Virus record (IMG/VR): IMGVR_UViG_3300028837_001194
Span: 1-28,779 of that record
Origin: a virus
Taxonomy: Duplodnaviria; Caudoviricetes
Strand: one strand, 5' to 3'
Length of the DNA stretch: 28,779 nt
This document shows, piece after piece, positions 6,870-18,647 of this stretch. Within the stretch, counting starts at the first letter, position 1, and each line of letters opens with the position of its first letter. The position numbers and the translations under genes were made by a program. Below the pieces are notes generated by a model. The model was given only the letters and a program-made list of their open reading frames with translations. It did no database searches and was not told the origin of the DNA.

Positions 6870-7318
6870 TATTCTGTCCTCGTCCAAATGTGCATATCTG
6901 GCTCCTTCTTGAACCCTAAATGCTCAAGAAACTTATCGCTTATTTTCGACTCTGCGAATACGCGCCAGAGGTTTTTTTCGTCCCTCGTCTTAATAAATAC
7001 ATCTTTCGTTTCTTCAAAAAGTTTTTTCTTCTGCCTTAATCTTATATGGGGAAAAGTCGCACACCACGCCTCACCCAGACCTATATAGCGGATACCGCCT
7101 ACCCCGAAAAATTCACCTTTATCCGTAAAATATGAATGAGCAGTACCGGTAATGATGTTTATGTTTGCAAGATATACCTTCTCTGCCTGAGACAATTTAT
7201 CGTAATCAGGGTAAAATTCCTTATTGGCCGCCATAACAGCCAAAAAGTCATCGGTTGTCATTTGTCTTTGTTCCATAATAAACCCTGCGCAACCACTGCG
7301 CAACCACTGCGCAACCAT
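6869..7318 (-). CDS. GNAT-fold-like phage protein (T7 gp13 positional analogue); start at 7318 or 7276
   Basis: FFGVGGI..LGEAW and KFLEHLGFKKE motifs. It sits between the nozzle and the gp14-like gene, as gp13 does. Confidence 0.7.
   Translation of the reverse strand: MVAQWLRSGCAGFIMEQRQMTTDDFLAVMAANKEFYPDYDKLSQAEKVYLANINIITGTAHSYFTDKGEFFGVGGIRYIGLGEAWCATFPHIRLRQKKKLFEETKDVFIKTRDEKNLWRVFAESKISDKFLEHLGFKKEPDMHIWTRTE
7285..7317. repeat. Perfect tandem repeat (CTGCGCAACCA)x3
   Basis: Read directly from the sequence; each unit contains the palindrome TGCGCA. Confidence 0.95.
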
Positions 7319-7320
7319 AG

Positions 7321-9339
7321 TTAGGGCGCATTCATTCCATATTGAGTAATAATCTGTCTTATCGTCAGAGGAAAAGGCGCATCGCTTTCGACGTAAATAG
7401 TCTGTTTCTTTTTCGACGCATAAGGATAAGGATATCTTCTAAATCTCGATAAACACGTAGTTAAATCCTGTGCTGTTGCGTTAGGGTCGAAATTCATATC
7501 ATTTTCAAAATTGATATATGTTAAATCATCGAGAGTTGCACTATCCCCATATTTGCAATATCCTGTTTTGTAAAAATCGAAATCAAGTGCTTGAACGTGC
7601 TTTTGCATAGCCTTGTCCTGCGGGTCTATTACCAAAGGCAAGCTCTCATATTTCGATGTGTAAGGCAGACCTGCCGTTACCCTCGCCGCCGCTCTGTCTA
7701 TTATGATTTCGCCGTTTGCATCAACTACCTCGTTAGGCTCAAAAACACCGTCGCCTAATATATATATATTTTCACCGATTAAATGGTCGAGTCCGTTAAA
7801 ATCATTCACTTCAGAACCAGTATAAGAAAGTCCCGAATCGACGAACCAGCAGTCGTTAGTATCAGTACCCCAGTCTCGCGGAGCGAATCGCTCGACGTAT
7901 TTGTAATCGTTGCCGTCTATTGTCCTGTTGACTATTACCCAAATCTCATCCTCAAATTCTATGCCGGGGATTCTGCAGACGGATTCAAAATCCCCATCCG
8001 TTGTCTGTTTAGCCCATCCTATGACCTGCTGCTGGGCATCATAAGTCAGAGTTGCAATATCACCGTTATTTAACACGCACCAAAGAATAGGTTGCGGCCT
8101 GTACTGAAAAGCAACATCTTTTATCCCGCTGTTCGTTATATCCTCGGAAAGCAGCGTTAAATCAGGTGACAGGTATTTATCGTGCTGCAAGGAATATGAA
8201 AATTCCCTTATATTCCTATTGCCTCTCTCAACGTACAATAGTGATTCGCTTGCAAGTGCCGGCATAATGGCGGCAGAGCCTACATTTGTCTGCTCCTGAT
8301 ATGCAGGACTCGTAAACTTTACAGCCTCGCCCCGCTCACCCCAAATTCCTACGCTGCCGGAAGTGCCGATAATCAGATAATCCTTAGAAGCAAGCCAGCG
8401 TATGGGATTCTGTCCCGTAAGGGCAACGAGAAAGGCTGAATCGTCCAATGCTCCTTCCATAAAATTCTCAGGGTTGCCTGTTTTGCTGAACCATAAAATT
8501 TGCGGATATGTGGTCGAGCCGCCGAATACAAGTCTCTGCTGGTGATAACAAACAGTTTTGGGCCAGCCGTAACGGTCGCTCCAATAAGGCTCTCGCCAGT
8601 GTTTTGTGGCATCTGTCGAATCCAACGCTGTTAATACTGTCCCCGTAACGACCGTTCCGCTCTCATAATCGGTAATTTTTACTACTCCGTGATTTAGCGG
8701 GTCTGTAATAGTGAAAGTCCAGTCGCAGGTGCCGCTTACATAATCGCTCATTGTAACCCTGTAGATTGCTCCATCTTCTTCTGTCTCTGCCGGATTATCG
8801 AAATGTGTGCTGTTCATCGGCACTAATGCGTTTTTCCAGGTAACACCGTTATTTGTGCTTCTCTCTAAAGTTACCGTAGCGTCCCAGGTGCCATCGGTAA
8901 TAAAGGAATAACCGCCGACAAAATAATCCGTTGAGTCGCCTGATTCGTCATCGTTTAACGAGCCTGTATAAGATGTATTTGAGCGTTTCTGGTTTATCTC
9001 CCAGATTGAGCCGTTATGCGTTTCCAGAAATATGCTGCTGCTGGCGGTGAGTGTAATCGAGTCTTTTGTACCCGAAGGTGTAATAGTTATATCCTCATCG
9101 TTTTCAGGCAGGAACGGCCCCGTTGATATGTCCATATCGGCAATCGTCCAGTCGTTATGAGCCGCTCTCGTCAGCTTTTGCGGCCAGTCGTTGCCATCGA
9201 CGAGGTACATAGTATTATCGGCCTGTGCGTACTGGACATCCCATATCTCGCAGGCGTCGAAAACAGTAGCGATGTAATATGCGTCGCCGTAACATAAAGA
9301 GCTTAAAAGCAAGAACAGTAAAATTATTAGTTTTTTCAT
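7321..9339 (-). CDS. Tail nozzle (tail tubular protein B, T7 gp12-like), main C-terminal part, with its own signal peptide
   Basis: Motifs VQYAQADNTMYLV, GWPKTVCYHQQRLVFGG..PQILWFSKTG..ENF, LSPDLTLLSEDI, WAKQTTDGDFESVC, FVDSGLSY..GLDHLIGE, AGLPYTS. The N-terminus is MKKLIILLFLLLSSLCYG|D. Confidence 0.88.
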   Translation of the reverse strand: MKKLIILLFLLLSSLCYGDAYYIATVFDACEIWDVQYAQADNTMYLVDGNDWPQKLTRAAHNDWTIADMDISTGPFLPENDEDITITPSGTKDSITLTASSSIFLETHNGSIWEINQKRSNTSYTGSLNDDESGDSTDYFVGGYSFITDGTWDATVTLERSTNNGVTWKNALVPMNSTHFDNPAETEEDGAIYRVTMSDYVSGTCDWTFTITDPLNHGVVKITDYESGTVVTGTVLTALDSTDATKHWREPYWSDRYGWPKTVCYHQQRLVFGGSTTYPQILWFSKTGNPENFMEGALDDSAFLVALTGQNPIRWLASKDYLIIGTSGSVGIWGERGEAVKFTSPAYQEQTNVGSAAIMPALASESLLYVERGNRNIREFSYSLQHDKYLSPDLTLLSEDITNSGIKDVAFQYRPQPILWCVLNNGDIATLTYDAQQQVIGWAKQTTDGDFESVCRIPGIEFEDEIWVIVNRTIDGNDYKYVERFAPRDWGTDTNDCWFVDSGLSYTGSEVNDFNGLDHLIGENIYILGDGVFEPNEVVDANGEIIIDRAAARVTAGLPYTSKYESLPLVIDPQDKAMQKHVQALDFDFYKTGYCKYGDSATLDDLTYINFENDMNFDPNATAQDLTTCLSRFRRYPYPYASKKKQTIYVESDAPFPLTIRQIITQYGMNAP

Positions 9340-9698
9340 TCTAATATCGGGCCTCCATCATTATTTGCATCTGTTCGAAAAAATCTTATACATTCATCCG
9401 TTAATTCGAGGACATAGGCATCGTCCGTCGAATAATTGAACGGAATAAGCCTTGCGAGAGTCGTACTGTTTGCATCTTCTATGTATTGCGTGCCCGGACG
9501 TCTTTCTATCGGCCCCTGCGTAAAGACGAACATATTCTCAAGCTGCCTGCATCCGCTTGTGTACCGCTGAAAGTCGCTTCTCGCTTCGAGCAAGGGTGAG
9601 AACTGCCCACCATTAAAAGATGTTAGAGCGGGTGAAAATGCGTAACATATTGCAGCTATAAGAGTTATAAACAATATTATTATTGCCTTTTTTATCAT
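9336..9698 (-). CDS. Tail nozzle N-terminal module (short paralogue), with signal peptide
   Basis: SFNGGQFSPLLEARSDFQRY..GCRQLENM..QGPIERRPGTQY..RLIPFNYSTDDAYVLEL is the canonical tubular-B N-terminus. It is preceded by MIKKAIIILFITLIAAICYA|F. ATGA overlaps at both ends. Confidence 0.85.
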   Translation of the reverse strand: MIKKAIIILFITLIAAICYAFSPALTSFNGGQFSPLLEARSDFQRYTSGCRQLENMFVFTQGPIERRPGTQYIEDANSTTLARLIPFNYSTDDAYVLELTDECIRFFRTDANNDGGPILE

Positions 9699-11155
9699 TG
9701 CATCACCTGCCCCGGTTCCCCGTTTGCATCCGTTCTGTAAAAGCCCATAAATCCACCGCCAAAAGAAAGTACATAAGAATCGTCCGTCGAGATTTCAACA
9801 GGGATAAGGCGTACTGAATCAGCAGAGACACTTTCAAGATATTCTATATATGTATCGGCTTTAGGTAGTACCACAGGTTTTGTAATAAAAGCTACCGGGG
9901 CCTGCAAAGTAATACCGCCATCTCTCGTATCGTTTGTTTCAATGAAGCTCAGGTCATCAGACGAATAAGTATCACAATAATACGGATTGCGAATCACTCG
10001 TATATTGCCGAAAGTATCAATAAAGAAAGTATAGCTGTTTATATCACCTGATGTTTCTGCCTCTATAGATGATAAATCGGCTGATAATTTCCAAATGCGC
10101 TGTATCGTGCTTGTTGTTGTGCGACCGGCGACATATACATAACCGTTATAGGTGTTAATTGAATACATTACAGGTATATTTGAATTGGCATATTTCCACA
10201 TATGAACGGTATCATCGGTAAGGCTTAAAGCAAATACACAGTAGTAACGAAACTCTGCCGGAATGTTTGGATATAGATAATTTGACCATCCGCATACATA
10301 TACATAGCCCATATCATAATCAACGCACATATCATAAGGGAACTGTATTCTGACATCCCAGTCCGGGTCGTTGTCCGAATCCTCGCTCAAATCTGATTTT
10401 ATTATGTGAGGCTGATAATGCTCACAATCCTCAGCTATACCACCCACCCTCACAATTTCATCATCATTAAGAATTTGTATTGCATAGCCCCCACCAAGAT
10501 AATTATCATCTAAATCTGTTTCATAAAGTCCAATAAGTGTGCCATCGACAGCAAATTTCATTAAGCGACCACTATGCGATGAGCCGCCGTGAGCATAAAT
10601 ATACTGGTCGTCTGCGCTAAAGTGGACATCCCAAACTGTTTTGTCGTAACCGATATCGATACCAGGCTCAAAGTCTGCCGTTATAATCTCACCTGTTGTG
10701 GAATTGTATGTAGATAAAACCGAATCAATATAATCTGTATTATTAGTCATCGCTACAATACTGCCATCGGATGATATATCTGCCGCATAGGATTCAGTAA
10801 CCTCATAATCATCATCAGGGTCGTAGCTGTTTTGTGCTAAAATAGCCTCGCAATTTCTGTCAAAAATGCCCCACCGATAGCCAGCAGGAACAATATACAT
10901 AGGCGGCCAGAATATCTCCGGCAAAAATTCAGGCTCTTCCAATTCTCCGACATATTGCGTGCCCGGTCTTCTCGTAATCGGGCCGTGAGTATAAACGAGC
11001 ATATTTTCTAAGATTCGGCAGGAGCTTAAATATTTATCAAATCCGCTTCTCGCCTCAACAGACGGGCTTACCTGCCCTGCATTGAACGATAAAAATGCAG
11101 GTGAAACAGCCAAAGCAGTCGTCGAGAATAAAAGCAAAATCAAAATCCTTTTCAT
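9695..11155 (-). CDS. Tail nozzle N-terminal module (long paralogue) with a ~370-aa inserted beta-propeller-like domain, with signal peptide
   Basis: SFNAGQVSP..ARS..KY..SCRILENM..HGPITRRPGTQYV, then the insert (AADISSDGSIVA, VWDVHFSADDQYIY, YNGYVYVAG), then RLIPVEISTDDSYVLSF..FYRTDAN. The N-terminus is MKRILILLLFSTTALA|V. Confidence 0.82.
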   Translation of the reverse strand: MKRILILLLFSTTALAVSPAFLSFNAGQVSPSVEARSGFDKYLSSCRILENMLVYTHGPITRRPGTQYVGELEEPEFLPEIFWPPMYIVPAGYRWGIFDRNCEAILAQNSYDPDDDYEVTESYAADISSDGSIVAMTNNTDYIDSVLSTYNSTTGEIITADFEPGIDIGYDKTVWDVHFSADDQYIYAHGGSSHSGRLMKFAVDGTLIGLYETDLDDNYLGGGYAIQILNDDEIVRVGGIAEDCEHYQPHIIKSDLSEDSDNDPDWDVRIQFPYDMCVDYDMGYVYVCGWSNYLYPNIPAEFRYYCVFALSLTDDTVHMWKYANSNIPVMYSINTYNGYVYVAGRTTTSTIQRIWKLSADLSSIEAETSGDINSYTFFIDTFGNIRVIRNPYYCDTYSSDDLSFIETNDTRDGGITLQAPVAFITKPVVLPKADTYIEYLESVSADSVRLIPVEISTDDSYVLSFGGGFMGFYRTDANGEPGQVMQ

Positions 11156-12081
11156 TAAGACCGTCCCCCAAGATAATCGACTTTTGTTTTCGTACGCCTG
11201 TTATACTGGCTCTGGTTAGCGACTTTTGCAGAAGATTTTACCAACTGATGATATTCGAGCAGTTTATCCTGCCGTGTTTTAAGGTCTCTACCGCAAACGG
11301 GACACAGTTCGGCAGCCAGAAGCGTCGAAAAGCACTGGACAAAATCGTCGCTGAAACCCGATTCCTTATCTTTAAGGTCGTGTACGTATTCGATAAATGC
11401 ACTATCTCCTGCGTGGTTGCTCAAAGTATTGGTTATTAAAATTTTGCCATCCTGAGCTTTATTAAGGAGAGTGTCGAACCTATATTTAAGTCTTTCTTCT
11501 TCTGTGCTTGAAAAGTCCTCGTTAATCTGTCTGACGACATACTCGCAATCGTCCGGCAAATCAAAGCAATAGCTATAACCTCCAATTTCAGGGCAATAGC
11601 TCGTTATCCCCGAATCCTCTGTATATTCCCAGCTATCCGTACCCTCTATATCATCCAGAGTAAAACTCGTTGAATCGACGACTGTAATATCGGAAATCTT
11701 GTTATTGAGGGCTAATTCAAGACCGAGCGAACCTCGTACACAATAGAATCCGATTGAGTCGCCGTCCTCATAATCGTATGCCTCTTTCGTTGTTATTGTG
11801 ATAGTACCACCGGATATGCTTATATCGGAAATTGTCTCATCATACTGCTTAAAGTCAGTACCTAAATCGGCGAATTTCAAACTCTCCCTGAACGGGCAGC
11901 CCGCCTTCGCCAAATCGAGAACTACCTGTAATCTGGCCTGAGAATATATCTCAAGTGCGAAAGTTGTTATTTTGTCCGAACCATTCAGGTTAGACAAAAA
12001 AGGATATGTTCCGAACTGGTCGCCTGCCCCGCCAATCTTGCCGAAGGCTTTATTGATAATCTCCAATTTTGTGTAACTCAT
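11155..12081 (-). CDS. Tail adaptor (tail tubular protein A, T7 gp11-like) with an internal inserted beta domain
   Basis: TKLEIINKAFGKIG N-terminus, YCFDLPDDC and FVQCFSTLLAAEL motifs. It lies directly before the nozzle genes and has no signal peptide. Confidence 0.8.
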   Translation of the reverse strand: MSYTKLEIINKAFGKIGGAGDQFGTYPFLSNLNGSDKITTFALEIYSQARLQVVLDLAKAGCPFRESLKFADLGTDFKQYDETISDISISGGTITITTKEAYDYEDGDSIGFYCVRGSLGLELALNNKISDITVVDSTSFTLDDIEGTDSWEYTEDSGITSYCPEIGGYSYCFDLPDDCEYVVRQINEDFSSTEEERLKYRFDTLLNKAQDGKILITNTLSNHAGDSAFIEYVHDLKDKESGFSDDFVQCFSTLLAAELCPVCGRDLKTRQDKLLEYHQLVKSSAKVANQSQYNRRTKTKVDYLGGRS

Positions 12082-12244: not shown

Positions 12245-13174
12245 CTAATAAAGCCTGCCATAAACGGTTATGTCACCCGCCTCGCCAGTTTGCTCAGGCA
12301 GGGCATCGTAAATAACGAATTGAACCCACTCAAGACCGGTCATATCCACTACAATAAAAGCAACTTCATTATCACCGGAATTATAGACAGCGACAGAAGG
12401 CCATTTGGTTGTTTCATCAAGATTGATAGTATCAGCCCAGAAAGAAGGATTGATTTGAACCCTTGCAGTTGTATCACTTGACGATGTTATGCCGGAACAT
12501 ACAATATTGTTAGAATCAGTTGCCGTCGTTATCGCATAATATCCGGTAGTAAGGTTTGAATCATTATCTGAAGTTACATAAGCCATCATACCGGCGACAA
12601 CATTTTCGAAGGCTTCATTAGTAACCGTGAATTTGGTTTCGCTATCGGTATAAGTTACATTAGATTCATCTACCAACGCCCCTACAGCGTCACCGCCATC
12701 GGGATATACAATGACAGCCTGATTGCCAAGAACACAATCGCCCTCGGCTATGTTCTGGAGCATACCGTTAATTCTGCTCCAGCCTATGATGTTGAAACTG
12801 AATGTATTATCAATAGCATTATCAGCACCTACATCGTAATTTTTAGCGCAAATGGCAAACATCCACGCACCGCCCGATGATTGAAATTCAGTGCCGTCAC
12901 CGCTTCCGGCATAAGAGTATATTCTGTACGGCCCGCCGTTTGCTACCGATGAGCTGTTTTTATTGGCGAAATTGCCCGCCGTAGTTAATGGATATACAGC
13001 TGCAAAAGTTGCGCCGTCCTCATCTGCCGTTTCCCTTATCAGCTTCCAGCCCGAATGATATGTATCGAGCGGGTCTGCTCTGGTCGTCGTAATAATAAAG
13101 ACAATAGCCCCTACAATTACAAAGAACAGCAAGACGGCGATAGTCGCCCGTCCTAATCTTAATATCTTTTTCAT
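12245..13174 (-). CDS. Hypothetical beta-rich protein with N-terminal signal peptide/anchor, 309 aa
   Basis: MKKILRLGRATIAVLLFFVIVGAIVFIITTTRA|DP; TAAGGAG RBS; acidic, Thr/Ser/Asn-rich mature part. Confidence 0.75.
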   Translation of the reverse strand: MKKILRLGRATIAVLLFFVIVGAIVFIITTTRADPLDTYHSGWKLIRETADEDGATFAAVYPLTTAGNFANKNSSSVANGGPYRIYSYAGSGDGTEFQSSGGAWMFAICAKNYDVGADNAIDNTFSFNIIGWSRINGMLQNIAEGDCVLGNQAVIVYPDGGDAVGALVDESNVTYTDSETKFTVTNEAFENVVAGMMAYVTSDNDSNLTTGYYAITTATDSNNIVCSGITSSSDTTARVQINPSFWADTINLDETTKWPSVAVYNSGDNEVAFIVVDMTGLEWVQFVIYDALPEQTGEAGDITVYGRLY

Positions 13175-13184
13175 TTCGTTCTCC

Positions 13185-14015
13185 TTAATATCTGTTTCTG
13201 TAATATTTTCTGTACCCGTATTTGGTTCTTGCCCTCATAATGTTCTCAGCAGTAGAACTAAGTCCAACTTCTTCCGTGCCGGTGCCGTTGTTATAAAGAC
13301 TTATGATTTGCGCTTCGGTGAGTTCGTTATCGTAGATTACGAGATTGTCTATAACGCCTTTTGCCATACTAATACTGTCTTTGCCGATGTATATATCCTC
13401 ATTGCTGTTATCGACATTAGCGAAAGTTCCGTTTATATCATCACTGTCGTCAACCTGCTGGCCATCGAGATATAATTTGACGCCGCTTGACAAAGCACCG
13501 CCGTCGTAAGTGCAGCATACGAAAATAAAGTCGCTACCCTCATACAGGGCATAGTTGGTCGTAGTATCAATCCTGCCAATCTTCGCCTGACTGGCGCTTT
13601 CGTCATAAAGGGTAAAATACATATTGTCACCACCGACATAAAAGCTCCATTCAAGGGCTGTGCCCTTTTTGTTGGCTATCATAAAATCGAGAGCGCCTTC
13701 ATCTGCCGAAAGACTTATCCACGATGTAATACTAAAAGGCGTCCCATCAGGCGTAAAAGCGGCGGCATCGGAAACCGTGATATAATCGTTTGTCCCATCG
13801 AGCTCTATCGCTGCATTTATCTTGCCCGTAGTAGTATGCGCTGAAGTGTAGTCATCGGCGCCGCCTGTGCCGTGAAAAGTGCCCGTATAGCTGCCGACGG
13901 AATCGGTAACAGTCGTATTATCGGCGTCGTCGTTCATCTTCCACTGTGCAATGGCGTCGCCGAAACAGTTGCCGGGCAAAAACAATACTAAGAACAGAAA
14001 TAATATTCGTTTCAT
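13185..14015 (-). CDS. LamG / concanavalin-A-like jelly-roll protein with signal peptide (likely start 14015)
   Basis: AQWKMND..VTDSVG, GKINAAIELDGTNDYI, FSITSWI, VKLYLDGQ, GVIDNLVIYDNELTEAQIISLY are LamG_3-type motifs. GGAG RBS precedes MKRILFLFLVLFLPGNCFG|D. Confidence 0.85.
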   Translation of the reverse strand: MKRILFLFLVLFLPGNCFGDAIAQWKMNDDADNTTVTDSVGSYTGTFHGTGGADDYTSAHTTTGKINAAIELDGTNDYITVSDAAAFTPDGTPFSITSWISLSADEGALDFMIANKKGTALEWSFYVGGDNMYFTLYDESASQAKIGRIDTTTNYALYEGSDFIFVCCTYDGGALSSGVKLYLDGQQVDDSDDINGTFANVDNSNEDIYIGKDSISMAKGVIDNLVIYDNELTEAQIISLYNNGTGTEEVGLSSTAENIMRARTKYGYRKYYRNRY

Positions 14016-14025
14016 AACATTCTCC

Positions 14026-14059
14026 AAAATATGGGAGCGAGTTTCCCCGCCCCCACATT
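14026..14059 (-). terminator. Probable intrinsic terminator after the 1525-aa gene
   Basis: Minus strand ATGTGGGGGCGGG-GAAA-CTCGCTCCCATAT (stem with G-U pairs) followed by a short T run. Confidence 0.65.
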
Positions 14060-14069
14060 AAAATTAAAT

Positions 14070-17000
14070 TTATTGAGCTACTACCGTCGTTCCATCCGTG
14101 ATACATCTCCACGTCAGATACCAGATAATAACACCGGTGGCATCTCCATCGGTGTTGGTCTGCTCAATATCACCTATAGGACAGAACCAAGAATCAAACA
14201 GACTTGTAGCACCGTTAGCGGCAGCTTCGCACGGAGTCAAGACGGATGGCGTAGCATTGGAAAAGACATATTTTGTCCCTACGGCATCGCCTTCTGTTGC
14301 TACCGCCGTGGAAAAGTCAACATCCTGCGCAGGAGTTGTGGCATCGCACCAGATTTTCATATTACCGGGACCGGCAGCAATTTCTGTCGTGACAATACCG
14401 ACAAAATCAAGGATGTAAATAGGTGCTGAAACGGCAAACAAGTCCTCTGCAAACGCCGTCGAGGTTGTGCAGACAGCAGTGTAGGTTTGTCCTGCAACCG
14501 TACTGGTTGCCGGCACTAACCTTCCGGACTCATCCGTTGCATCTATCGCATAGTTCTCAAAGCACTTCATATAACCAGGGTCAAGTATAGAGCCCCAGGT
14601 ATCGGCGTACATCTTGTTGCCGGTACACATACCTGTTGCGTTGCCTGCGAACTCAATACAATGCTCTCCGGTATTTACATTGGTAAGTATATTGTTGTGA
14701 ATGTTCAAGTTGAGGCATACCTGAGCAGCGCCCCAGATTGGTGCTTCTGAAAAATCTCCATATACTACATTATTCTCTATGGTCGTATCAACACAAGCGC
14801 CCTGGTCAAGATTGACAAAAGTGGTTACGTGCCCATCAGTTACATTAAGAGTTTTATAGGTGCAGTTCCTTACGGTAACACCGGTCGCTGTACTGTGGAC
14901 GATAATGCCATCTACAAACTCATCGACAGTAGTTTCCTCACCATCAAGAAATGCGCAATCTTCAATCGTAGCGTTAAGTCCCGTAGCTTCGATATCAATA
15001 GCTTTGAGTACGTTGGTAGCGCCGGGTCGGAACTGGATGTTCTTTATAGTGATGTTGGCCTTGCTGATTACTACTTCGGCAGCCGCATTTTCAAAATCAA
15101 TTCTCGGTCGAGCATTGCCAACACCCATACCAATAACACTAATACCAGCCACGTCAAGGTCAACAGCATCGGCGTTGCTAACGTCTTCGTAATGGCCTTC
15201 GGCTACCAGAATTATATCTCCCGCATCGGCGGTACAAGCGGCCTCGGCAAGATTGATAGTCGTAAAAGCCGAACCCCACGAACGGCCATCCTCACCACTG
15301 CCTGAGCGGTCAACATACCATACCTGGCCGGTTCCTTTACCTACCAAACCTGCGATATCGACATCGAGCGACTGGTCATCTCCAATGAGACGGCTTCCAG
15401 CGGTGGATTCAATCTCGCTGTAGGTGTTTCGAGCTAAGAACATATCCGCCCCGACAATAGATGCTTCCGGTGTGGCTACGTCGCAGAATAAAGAATTGTC
15501 GCTAATAACGCCGGTGGTCGTTTCGAGAAGCTCGATACAAGGTTCGGTATTCAAACCTGCAATTCCGCCGATAGTACCGTTGAATAAGGTATTGTGCTTA
15601 ATCACTATATGGTCGGCTGCGGTAGTATCGCTGTGAATACAAGCTGTGCTATAATCACCGTGTACTTCGTTACCGACAATCTCTGCATAGTCGGAATCTT
15701 CAAAATGAACCATAGCTACGGCGTCATTCGCACCCATCTGGAACCGGCAGTTCTTAATAACAAAGTTGTTATTTGCAGCAGCGTGGTCGATACAGTGGTC
15801 GAACTCATTCGTTGCGGAGGCAAAACTAAACTGGCAATCCTCAATCCTACAGTTTTCAGCACCCGTCTTGACCGTAATAGCAACCAGCACCGAATCCGCA
15901 CCGGCAATAAAGTGAAGGTTTTTGATTGTAATATCATCGTTGTCGATAGAGAGCGTTGCGCTTCCACCGGTATAAGTAAAGGTCGGCCTAAGGTCGCCGT
16001 TGCCAAGACCTATAATGGTAACACCGCCTACATCTATGTCGGCATATTCGGTTGTAAGTGTTCCTTCGGCGTGTCCTGCAGCGACATAAATAGTATCACC
16101 CCTGTCATCAGTACAGAGAGCCTCGGCAGCGCCAAGAGTAGCAACTGCAGTTGCCCAACTCCTACCATCTCCAGCACCAGGCGTGCCGGAATCAACGTAG
16201 AATATTCTGCCTGTGCCGTATTCGGCAACCTCATCATCAACTTCAGGTACAAGATAAGCCGAAGTGTTAATGGCATTTGAACCATAATTTTCAAAACACA
16301 TCATAGAACCGGGGTCGAGTACCGAACCGTATGTATTGGCATACAACCTATTACCTGAACAAACACCAGTCGCAGCGCCAGAACCTTCGACACACATTGC
16401 AGCCGAGGTATAGTTGCTGATAATGTTGTTCGTTATGGTCAGATTAACCGGAACGGCTGCACCCCAGTAGACAGCTGCATCTGCAAAAGTGCCGAATATC
16501 CTGCAATTCGTTATCGTGCAGTTGTCGATAGTAGTATCCTCAAGGTTGATAAACGTATCGGCTTCACCAGCTGTAGCGTTAGGATTTACATAAGTACAGT
16601 TATTAATGGTAACTACAGCTGTTGCATCAACGAGAATGGCATCTTCCCATTCATCGCCGGACTGCTCGCCGGTAATAAATGCACAATTATCCATCGTGCA
16701 GCCAATAGCGCCGGATTCAAAGTGAATACCTTTCGTCATAACCGAAGCGCTTGGATTAAAGCGAAGGTTCTTGAGCGTGACACCCGCGGCATTGATAGTT
16801 AAAACCAGCGTAGTATTGCCATCAAAATCAAACAGCGGACGGGCATCACCTTCACCTAAACCAATAATTGTCAGGTTAGCTACATCAATTATCGGTTGTG
16901 CCGCCTGAGTCCATCCTTCGTTGTGACCATCTGCTATGTAAATAACATCACCGGCGGAAGATGCGGCCTCAGCGAGAATAAGTGTAGAGTAGGCGTTTTC

Positions 17001-18647
17001 CCACGTCAGACCTGAACCATCACCTGAAGTGCCACTGTCAACATAGCGAATCGTTCCAGCACCACCTAATATGGTTGGTGTGTCAAGATTCAACTCCTCA
17101 ATACGCCTGACCATAACCTGGTCGCCACTTCCCAAAGCGGCACTAAAAGTTTCGACAGTAAATGTTCCGGTCAGTGAGACGTAATCAGTGATGTCTCTAA
17201 TTTCACCTTCCGGAGCATTGCCAACCGAATCATAGTTGAGCGTGCAAATCATAGACCAGCCTGTATTAAAGTAGTCATCGCCGAAACCGGCCAGTAAAGC
17301 AACAACAGGAGCCGTCTGGCTGGCAGCAGTATTATTACCTACATAACCGGTATCGGATAGAGCGGCTATCGAAGAGGCGATAGAGGATATTGAGGATGGT
17401 ATGTCCGTACCGGTATCCACAAGTATCGAGTCAACATTGCCTGATACCGTTGATACTGCTGAAGCAGTAGCACCAGCCGTATCGGAACCGTAAAGTAATG
17501 TTCTTGCTTCTGCTGATGTATCCCAAGCCGCTGTATCGGCAAGAATATCATCGGTATCTGAACCTATGTGGTCTAATGCAGCTTTGATGTTATCGTCAAC
17601 AGCAGAACCAGTAACGGGGCCGGTGAACGCACCGAGCATACTTTCAATGTTTCTTCCCGGTAAAGCCTCAGTCTGCATAGCTACATTGTCCGGCGATACG
17701 AACATAGCAGCACCGACAAGTTCAAAACCAGCGCCATTGGCATAGCAGGCATTGTTAATAAAAGCCCCATTAGTTGATGCTTCTACCTGTAATGTCTTAC
17801 CCGCCGTAGCATCCAGATTGACAACGTAGTTATCGGTAATCATTACACCCGTTGAGGTTGCCTGTAAAATATCGACAACACTTGCGCTCCATGTACCGAT
17901 AAATGTATTACCCTGAATGATTGTCTTATCAGAACCGCCTGCAAAATAAATCGCCGAAGTGGGGTCGGAACTGGCACCGCCGATAAATCTATTACCTGCA
18001 ATAGTCAGAGCATCGGCGTCAGTAGCCACATTAAGCATTATCAGTTGTTCCATAGAACTTGATGTTTCCCAGAACTCGCAGCCAATAATCCGTGTACCAT
18101 CGCCGTCACCGTTGATATAAATACCTGCGGTTATACCACCGGAATAAGCACCCAGAAAACGCATATTGTAAATCGTTATATCGGCCTCGCTTATTGTCAG
18201 TTCTGCTCCGGCATTTGTTATGAAGGAAATCGTCGGCTGGTTTTCACCTTCACCGAATCCGACAATAGTAATACCTTCACAATCCGCATCGAGAGCAGAA
18301 GCAGCGGTAATGTTTTCTTCGTGGTTCTCGGCGACGTAAACGAAATCGCCTAAATTCGCCGAACACAAATCAATACCTTCCTGCAAAGTTCCGACAGCAG
18401 TCGCCCACGAAAGACCTGTAGAACCATCAACGGCAGAATCGACATAGTAAATCGTACCAGAACCTATATCCATACCGCCTAAACCTGCCTCCACTTCTGT
18501 CATAAAACGGTAAACCGGGTCGTTACTGCTGCCGGTCCTTACAAACTGAAGGTTCTTTTTGTAGTTATCAGCCCCGTAAGTCAGAGCGGCCTGTGCACAA
18601 GTAGCCAATAACAGAAATATAATAGTGGCATAAATTACCTTTTTCAT
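14070..18647 (-). CDS. 1525-aa acidic protein with signal peptide and four tandem right-handed beta-helix (pectin-lyase-like) domains; putative spike/adhesin
   Basis: MKKVIYATIIFLLLATCAQA|A. The cap motif GxGxIxYVDS..G.G.SW..A..TL..A......GD.IYVAxGH.E occurs four times (~18450, ~17045, ~16200, ~15315), each followed by ITIxNxxF/IxNCxF rungs. TAAGGAG RBS. Confidence 0.82.
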   Translation of the reverse strand: MKKVIYATIIFLLLATCAQAALTYGADNYKKNLQFVRTGSSNDPVYRFMTEVEAGLGGMDIGSGTIYYVDSAVDGSTGLSWATAVGTLQEGIDLCSANLGDFVYVAENHEENITAASALDADCEGITIVGFGEGENQPTISFITNAGAELTISEADITIYNMRFLGAYSGGITAGIYINGDGDGTRIIGCEFWETSSSMEQLIMLNVATDADALTIAGNRFIGGASSDPTSAIYFAGGSDKTIIQGNTFIGTWSASVVDILQATSTGVMITDNYVVNLDATAGKTLQVEASTNGAFINNACYANGAGFELVGAAMFVSPDNVAMQTEALPGRNIESMLGAFTGPVTGSAVDDNIKAALDHIGSDTDDILADTAAWDTSAEARTLLYGSDTAGATASAVSTVSGNVDSILVDTGTDIPSSISSIASSIAALSDTGYVGNNTAASQTAPVVALLAGFGDDYFNTGWSMICTLNYDSVGNAPEGEIRDITDYVSLTGTFTVETFSAALGSGDQVMVRRIEELNLDTPTILGGAGTIRYVDSGTSGDGSGLTWENAYSTLILAEAASSAGDVIYIADGHNEGWTQAAQPIIDVANLTIIGLGEGDARPLFDFDGNTTLVLTINAAGVTLKNLRFNPSASVMTKGIHFESGAIGCTMDNCAFITGEQSGDEWEDAILVDATAVVTINNCTYVNPNATAGEADTFINLEDTTIDNCTITNCRIFGTFADAAVYWGAAVPVNLTITNNIISNYTSAAMCVEGSGAATGVCSGNRLYANTYGSVLDPGSMMCFENYGSNAINTSAYLVPEVDDEVAEYGTGRIFYVDSGTPGAGDGRSWATAVATLGAAEALCTDDRGDTIYVAAGHAEGTLTTEYADIDVGGVTIIGLGNGDLRPTFTYTGGSATLSIDNDDITIKNLHFIAGADSVLVAITVKTGAENCRIEDCQFSFASATNEFDHCIDHAAANNNFVIKNCRFQMGANDAVAMVHFEDSDYAEIVGNEVHGDYSTACIHSDTTAADHIVIKHNTLFNGTIGGIAGLNTEPCIELLETTTGVISDNSLFCDVATPEASIVGADMFLARNTYSEIESTAGSRLIGDDQSLDVDIAGLVGKGTGQVWYVDRSGSGEDGRSWGSAFTTINLAEAACTADAGDIILVAEGHYEDVSNADAVDLDVAGISVIGMGVGNARPRIDFENAAAEVVISKANITIKNIQFRPGATNVLKAIDIEATGLNATIEDCAFLDGEETTVDEFVDGIIVHSTATGVTVRNCTYKTLNVTDGHVTTFVNLDQGACVDTTIENNVVYGDFSEAPIWGAAQVCLNLNIHNNILTNVNTGEHCIEFAGNATGMCTGNKMYADTWGSILDPGYMKCFENYAIDATDESGRLVPATSTVAGQTYTAVCTTSTAFAEDLFAVSAPIYILDFVGIVTTEIAAGPGNMKIWCDATTPAQDVDFSTAVATEGDAVGTKYVFSNATPSVLTPCEAAANGATSLFDSWFCPIGDIEQTNTDGDATGVIIWYLTWRCITDGTTVVAQ

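Follow-up and report, generated by a model that had tools for sequence, protein, structure and literature searches.

The window analysed here is a 28.8-kb virus record (28,779 nucleotides), about 60% complete, in which podophage terminase, portal, capsid, adaptor and internal virion genes all lie on the minus strand. The tail nozzle gene sits between the adaptor gene upstream (PHROG 394) and the internal virion protein genes downstream (PHROGs 308 and 418). Against the norm of this family, one polypeptide with no leader, the nozzle is encoded here by three overlapping minus-strand ORFs with a leader on each. The most downstream of them (7321..9339) encodes a C-terminal chain of 672 aa, hereafter the C-chain, which matches PHROG 376 positions 105-709 (E = 9e-135). 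It is preceded by a plain N-terminal module of 120 aa (9336..9698; PHROG 376 positions 5-96, E = 2e-27) and, directly upstream, by a decorated N-module of 486 aa (9695..11155), recognised by PHROG 376 positions 8-62 and by profiles of two nozzle segments, N1 and N2. The original prediction had described the two downstream ORFs, the ...GGPILE end of the first, their ATGA stop/start overlap (9336..9339, minus strand) and the 18-residue leader of the second, all of which we confirmed. Its two-piece split stands, but the description was incomplete, as the upstream ORF, a second N-module, had been missed. Just past the nozzle stop, at the start of a 149-aa ORF, an 11-nt unit (GGTTGCGCAGT, minus strand) occurs in about three copies (window 7290-7320).

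The 672-aa ORF starts with MKKLIILLFLLLSSLCYG (18 residues; 9286..9339, minus strand), which by sequence and heuristic resembles a signal peptide with likely cleavage after CYG, and continues with DAYYIATVF. Segment profiles, built from 31 unsplit relatives, divide the plain module into a leader (residues 1-20), N1 (21-73), N2 (82-108) and the final GGPILE. As had been predicted, the two pieces cover the 712 positions of PHROG 376 in adjacent blocks that do not overlap. The C-chain is 58% identical to residues 114-759 of an unsplit relative (P0012); its start aligns to residue 114, with about three loop residues missing in comparison. The profile of the plain module matches the nozzle of Carin-1 (8ck1_A) at residues 11-103. 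Relatives of this module were also found (P0122-P0124), and one 82% identical 120-aa relative has the same end point.

The nozzle split is real. Support for the junction comes from assembled contigs, not raw reads. Logan contigs of two runs, possibly from the source sample (X1 and X2), span the stretch with zero differences, and a record from another sample of the same study (X4 record 10, depth 2.2) covers 9185-9434, also with zero differences; the contigs of a further run (X3) have no junction coverage. Since contigs of three runs cross the junction with no indel, the split is not a sequencing frameshift, in agreement with the earlier claim.

The nozzle fold was assessed on P0012, which matches 8ck1_A in sequence (E = 9e-84) and whose model (pLDDT 90.8) reaches a TM of 0.83 to that structure; platform, propeller and tip were all found in it. 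In T7 gp12, the platform receives three of its strands from the first 45 residues, with a velcro strand closing blade 1 (PMC6702177). With domain names transferred from this protein, the C-chain would comprise most of the propeller, the nozzle tip, the fibre dock and the C-terminal part of the platform. N1 of the plain module is predicted to supply platform strands and the velcro strand, and N2 blade strands.

The decorated module contains a leader (residues 1-16), N1 (18-70), a cargo (about 78-439) and N2 (446-474), and it shares 59% identity with the plain module across the first 66 aligned residues. The cargo (about 370 aa; 9839..10924, minus strand) is an insert in the loop between N1 and N2, which is otherwise short. 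In the ESM Atlas, the model of the 486-aa protein resembles WD40/PQQ-type propellers over residues 80-430 approximately (TM 0.64-0.70). It is predicted to be a WD40/PQQ-like beta-propeller, with a likely role in adhesion or receptor binding. A single-sequence AlphaFold model of the mature 486-aa protein had a pLDDT of 32 and was set aside. The cargo had no Pfam match and no homologue, either at E 0.001 in a word search of 1805 candidates or by phmmer among 48 other cargos; a weak pairwise extension (27%) links it to the cargo of one related locus (L155).

A library search with the 486-aa protein matched 1397 representatives, the best 150 of which were examined. Among these 150 are 12 plain modules and 49 proteins with the order N1-cargo-N2 (query included), 38 of the latter with a leader. 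The decorated proteins are sequences without genomic context, and 48 of the 49 stop 0-12 residues past the F-x-R motif in N2, a regularity not expected of fragments. Their cargos range from 179 to 854 aa and fall into a propeller-like group (22), a GLUG-type group (20) and small groups that include LamG. A fused form of the decorated module also exists in P0128 (1244 aa), whose single chain makes up a whole nozzle and holds a GLUG-type insert of 473 aa in its N1|N2 loop. In a separate set of 150 whole nozzles, no N1|N2 loop was longer than 13 residues. We had considered a steric reason for the bare module, namely that the cargo is never found on a whole nozzle, but the P0128 insert weakens this argument, as six cargo copies seem possible there.

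To model the complex, we used residues 17-486 of the decorated module and C-chain residues 19-78 and 243-672, without the tip domain; the model was run on our own alignments. The pair scored 0.88, against 0.30 for the best of three controls, a pass that may show likeness only because the 8CK1 structure is solved. In a benchmark the same mark was reached by 116/157 solved complexes and 2/215 mismatched pairs, counts that are only roughly valid for our own alignments and three chains. Contacts agreed between runs at 85% or more, and the pLDDT of the partners was at least 74. Within the decorated module, confident contacts were confined to the nozzle segments (residues 17-77 and 440-486), and the cargo made none with the C-chain. 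The original prediction held that the N-terminal piece completes the beta-propeller. For the decorated module the model agrees with this, with the same caveat of likeness to 8CK1, and the contacts with C-chain residues 560-571 and 657-665 indicate that the platform is completed as well. The loop at which the gene is cut is likely exposed, as an insert occupies it in 32 of 150 whole nozzles, and most of the inserts scanned were tandem LamG.

The proposed completion in trans fits the profile coverage, the predicted complex and a precedent, and we regard it as very likely. In the Pseudomonas podophage A1002, strand complementation between a nozzle-base protein (gp42) and a nozzle-rope protein (gp39) has been solved (PMC13730344). 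There, as proposed here, two chains rebuild the platform and the seven-bladed propeller by strand exchange, and one chain bears an appendage. The two systems differ in several respects. A1002 gp42 has 398 aa and the cut is late, near residue 400, whereas the window gene is cut after about 100-110 residues of the precursor; the rope is on the C-terminal part, whereas the window cargo is on an N-module; and A1002 has one partner where the window has two alternatives. The main text of the A1002 paper does not contain the term signal peptide, while in the window every piece has a leader. The nozzles of Carin-1 (8CK1 chain A, from a Cobetia phage), LME-1 (orf18, 9EFK) and T7 (gp12) share family (PHROG 376) and fold with that of the window, yet each of the three is one chain with no leader and no alternative module. 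Unsplit nozzles with LamG inserts (L005, L012, L013 and L016) carry tandem LamG at the junction where the window gene is cut. In those nozzles every one of the six subunits bears the cargo permanently, whereas the window cargo lies in a different loop and on an optional piece.

The order decorated module, plain module, C-chain was also found in five other loci (L004, a complete genome with terminal repeats; L029, whose decorated-module N2 is degenerate and was recognised by eye only; L083; L099; and L155). All six loci that are split at the site of the window and have DNA reaching the adaptor gene, the window included, possess two N-modules; in three others (L084, L088 and L089) the DNA ends too early to show upstream modules. 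Where 2 kb or more of upstream DNA was available for an unsplit locus (81 cases), no extra N1 ORF was present. Module exchange, raised in the original prediction as one possible benefit of the split, gains support from this second, cargo-bearing N-module directly upstream, here and in the five other loci. In the window and L099 both N-modules keep a GQIL-type strand that the C-chain lacks, and in L004 and L155 both stop at FFRTxx and the C-chain begins with that strand. The two N-modules of each lineage thus end to suit the local C-chain. We consider it probable that both use the same C-chain slot. The decorated modules are mutually 39-64% identical and more divergent than most plain ones.

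Several related loci showed other arrangements. L114 (2282-6333) has a different split, after N1, with a single N1 piece; this piece of 91 aa ends in GQYGYGAYGEGIYGE, and an unrelated leader-bearing beta-helix gene (471 aa) separates it from the rest. ORFs just downstream of whole nozzles in L144 (5030-6082) and L147 (3018-3758) match the nozzle profile near 533-614 and are possibly duplicated fibre-dock modules. P0058 and P0025, used as queries against viral contigs, gave 15 loci; 14 of these were new, and none of the 14 holds a split. Eight contigs of the clade lie in genome bins, where they carry six phylum-level labels (Planctomycetota for three of them), and Phycisphaerae is the label of two homologues; no consistent host emerged.

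Some loci have, between their tail genes, antisense genes that carry CxxC and HH..C..CH motifs and look, by eye, like HNH/zinc-finger endonucleases (L083:3357-3821, minus strand; L084:400-500; L015:4535-5137, minus strand; L149:5980-6570; L155:81-560). Related sequence occurs in 13 loci, and the L083 gene has no Pfam HNH match. Shadow frames of these genes give false long N-terminal extensions in database proteins such as P0010 and P0017. In L083 and L084 such a gene or its remnant lies between the nozzle N-module and the C-chain, a situation reminiscent of the Aeh1 nrdA gene, which is split by the mobE endonuclease gene and whose products assemble without splicing (PMC3045599). Both cases concern an essential phage gene in two ORFs. 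Aeh1 nrdA, though, encodes an enzyme with no export and no alternative piece, whereas the window nozzle is a virion part with no element at its junction. We rejected an endonuclease origin for the window split, the junction element being absent from the window and five other loci.

Among the 119 non-self homologues listed, 37 are N-truncated, lacking N1 but retaining the next blade. A new leader stands at the start of 36 of these 37 chains; the remaining one begins in the middle of a strand and resembles a fragment. Of the 119, 35 are full C-chains that have a leader of their own. The truncated chains begin at one of three breakpoints, which precede YxI, GQI and RLIP, respectively. For a C-chain tree, rows more than 97% identical were removed (240 to 189), as were six proteins lacking the C0 segment, rows in which the last domain is missing and open-ended fragments; the tree comprised the 36 split rows in full and a subset of 42 from the 153 whole ones. 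Split state changes nine times on this tree, at least five of the changes being forced by well-supported branches, and gain and loss are indistinguishable in these counts. A single split clade was rejected (p = 3e-164, or 2e-66 without two distant rows). Most split modules group together in the N-module tree (90 columns, support 0.85), so that recombination may inflate the count of origins. On the evidence of the C-chain tree, nozzle splits arose repeatedly and in several lineages. After L099, the nearest relatives of the window C-chain are unsplit signal-peptide nozzles, including the four with LamG inserts mentioned above.

Leaders were scored with a home-made n/h/c heuristic. By this measure 6 of 27 window genes encode signal-peptide-like leaders, half of the six being the nozzle pieces and the other half fibre-like genes, each with a basic n-region, a hydrophobic h-region and small residues at -3 and -1. 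Comparison with leaderless relatives places the leader as a graft where leaderless nozzles begin. The original prediction had remarked on the signal peptide at the break; 112 of 153 whole nozzles (from the non-redundant set of 189) also have one. Of the 41 without, several look like mis-called starts and the rest are distant. Judging by these homologues, the signal peptide is a trait of the clade and is not peculiar to the split. No leader was found in homologues of the adaptor (0/43), the capsid (0/10) or the internal proteins (0/42 and 0/28), and homologues of the three fibre-like genes nearly always have one (5/5, 23/26 and 21/21). That a leader was gained repeatedly at new internal starts suggests that every piece must take the same route. 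From their sequences we infer that the three nozzle chains are probably truly exported. The suggestion that the split prevents premature folding found no support in anything tested; in most relatives the nozzle is exported or carried as one chain.

The neighbouring genes include the adaptor itself (11155..12081, minus strand; PHROG 394), which resembles tail tubular protein A, has no signal peptide and is likely the docking ring for the nozzle. Its residues 91-149 show a weak E1_FCCH-like insert, below the cut-off; an E1_FCCH domain also occurs in several nozzles and cargos. Upstream lie the three genes with signal peptides (12245..18647, minus strand; 309, 280 and 1525 aa), assigned by the heuristic and their homologues and likely encoding fibre or outer-tail proteins. 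The 280-aa product is a stand-alone, leader-bearing LamG protein (window 13185-14027), and LamG lies inside the nozzle in the nearest unsplit relatives; a weaker Toxin_R_bind_N match overlaps the LamG match, likely through a shared fold. The 1525-aa leader-bearing product (window 14070-18647) has repeated YVDS/YVAEGH units and 35 cysteines, has no match in PHROG or Pfam at E 0.001 and is likely a fibre. Two relatives carry further genes of interest. G001, a complete relative with the same layout, encodes a Destabilase/i-type lysozyme that has a leader or anchor at its N-terminus (L190:4585-5103), a candidate exported endolysin that would fit a walled host. No lysozyme of this type was recognised in G002, which carries two integrase-like genes and a likely ejection protein of 2070 aa with an ART-PolyVal ADP-ribosyltransferase domain (L193:5729-11938).

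Taken together, we favor, with reasonable rather than high confidence, a split nozzle gene that yields one C-chain and two alternative N-modules for one slot, with a signal-peptide-like leader on each, likely export and a mixed six-fold product. All three chains would be exported by Sec, and cleavage of the leader would free the normal nozzle N-terminus. The chains would then fold and pair in the periplasm, where either N-module is predicted to fill the same slot of the C-chain, N1 giving platform strands and the strand that closes the propeller and N2 giving blade strands. In the resulting six-fold nozzle, some subunits may be bare and others may bear the propeller, a cargo perhaps acting in adhesion or receptor binding. 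Such a nozzle would join the leaderless adaptor and head once the inner membrane is breached at lysis.

No export would be needed if the leaders were uncleaved anchors or targeting tags that keep the tail parts on the cytoplasmic side of the inner membrane, where the chains would complete one another. Heads, adaptor and internal proteins are all leaderless, and such parts are normally joined by the nozzle in the cytoplasm, as is established for T7 (PMC6702177); moreover, open-access literature listings yielded no tailed phage with an exported nozzle. We nevertheless consider this unlikely. Each leader opens with basic residues, followed by a short hydrophobic stretch and a cleavage motif of small residues whose end coincides with the start of leaderless nozzles. 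Mature tails would stay tethered to membrane if all three chains kept an uncleaved anchor.

The decorated protein might also have no place in the nozzle. Only the plain module would then build it, with the decorated protein docking elsewhere, forming separate particles or being secreted as a free decoy or chaperone. The greater divergence of decorated modules among themselves is in keeping with such a role. Against it, N1 and N2 have both been kept around cargos of very different lengths, nearly all decorated proteins end at the split site, the module ends match the local C-chain, and the predicted complex uses the canonical slot. We regard a separate fate of the decorated protein as quite unlikely.

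Far less probable is a single covalent nozzle with two alternative first "exons", produced by splicing, translational bypass, frameshifting or DNA rearrangement. The three-gene layout does resemble mutually exclusive exons, and the C-chain leader, at about 54 nt, has almost the length of the T4 gene 60 gap (50 nt). A bypass of the gene 60 type was rejected, as five of the six loci have no matched take-off and landing codons within 36 codons, the match in the sixth would delete conserved residues, and the gap is not fixed, the junction spacing being -4, -1 or +557. The stretch that a bypass would skip is, in addition, a conserved hydrophobic peptide. A group I or II intron at the junction was discarded after Rfam gave no match in the window at gathering score, as was a recombination switch, the longest repeat family in the window being only 30 nt at about 70%. 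An assembly error or a decaying gene can practically be dismissed: read depth is modest and a single second-sample contig bridges the junction, but three runs show no differences, the 82% identical relative ends at the same point, and full leader-bearing C-chains recur among the homologues.

The exported nozzle with two interchangeable N-modules thus remains our preferred account. The split alone has precedent in A1002; the surprising part is the exported, interchangeable, cargo-bearing modules. The open-access literature listings covered also held no alternative N-modules. For the clade as a whole, we tentatively propose a quite conceivable extension, in which these phages would build a DNA-gating nozzle in the periplasm as a plug-in system. 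A display-scaffold module with a propeller, GLUG or LamG domain would be titrated against a bare copy, and the product would join cytoplasmic heads at lysis. As part of this same proposal, the module of about 100 residues that completes the nozzle fold would be a natural display scaffold.

If this is true, one of the core tail components of a tailed phage passes through an assembly stage outside the cytoplasm, and the new leader gained nearly every time the nozzle was cut would be independent evolutionary evidence that export is required. The duplicated N-module would likewise offer a simple way to swap adhesion domains and to set their copy number on a six-fold tail. Such swapping of adhesion domains would bear on host range in uncultured sediment phages.
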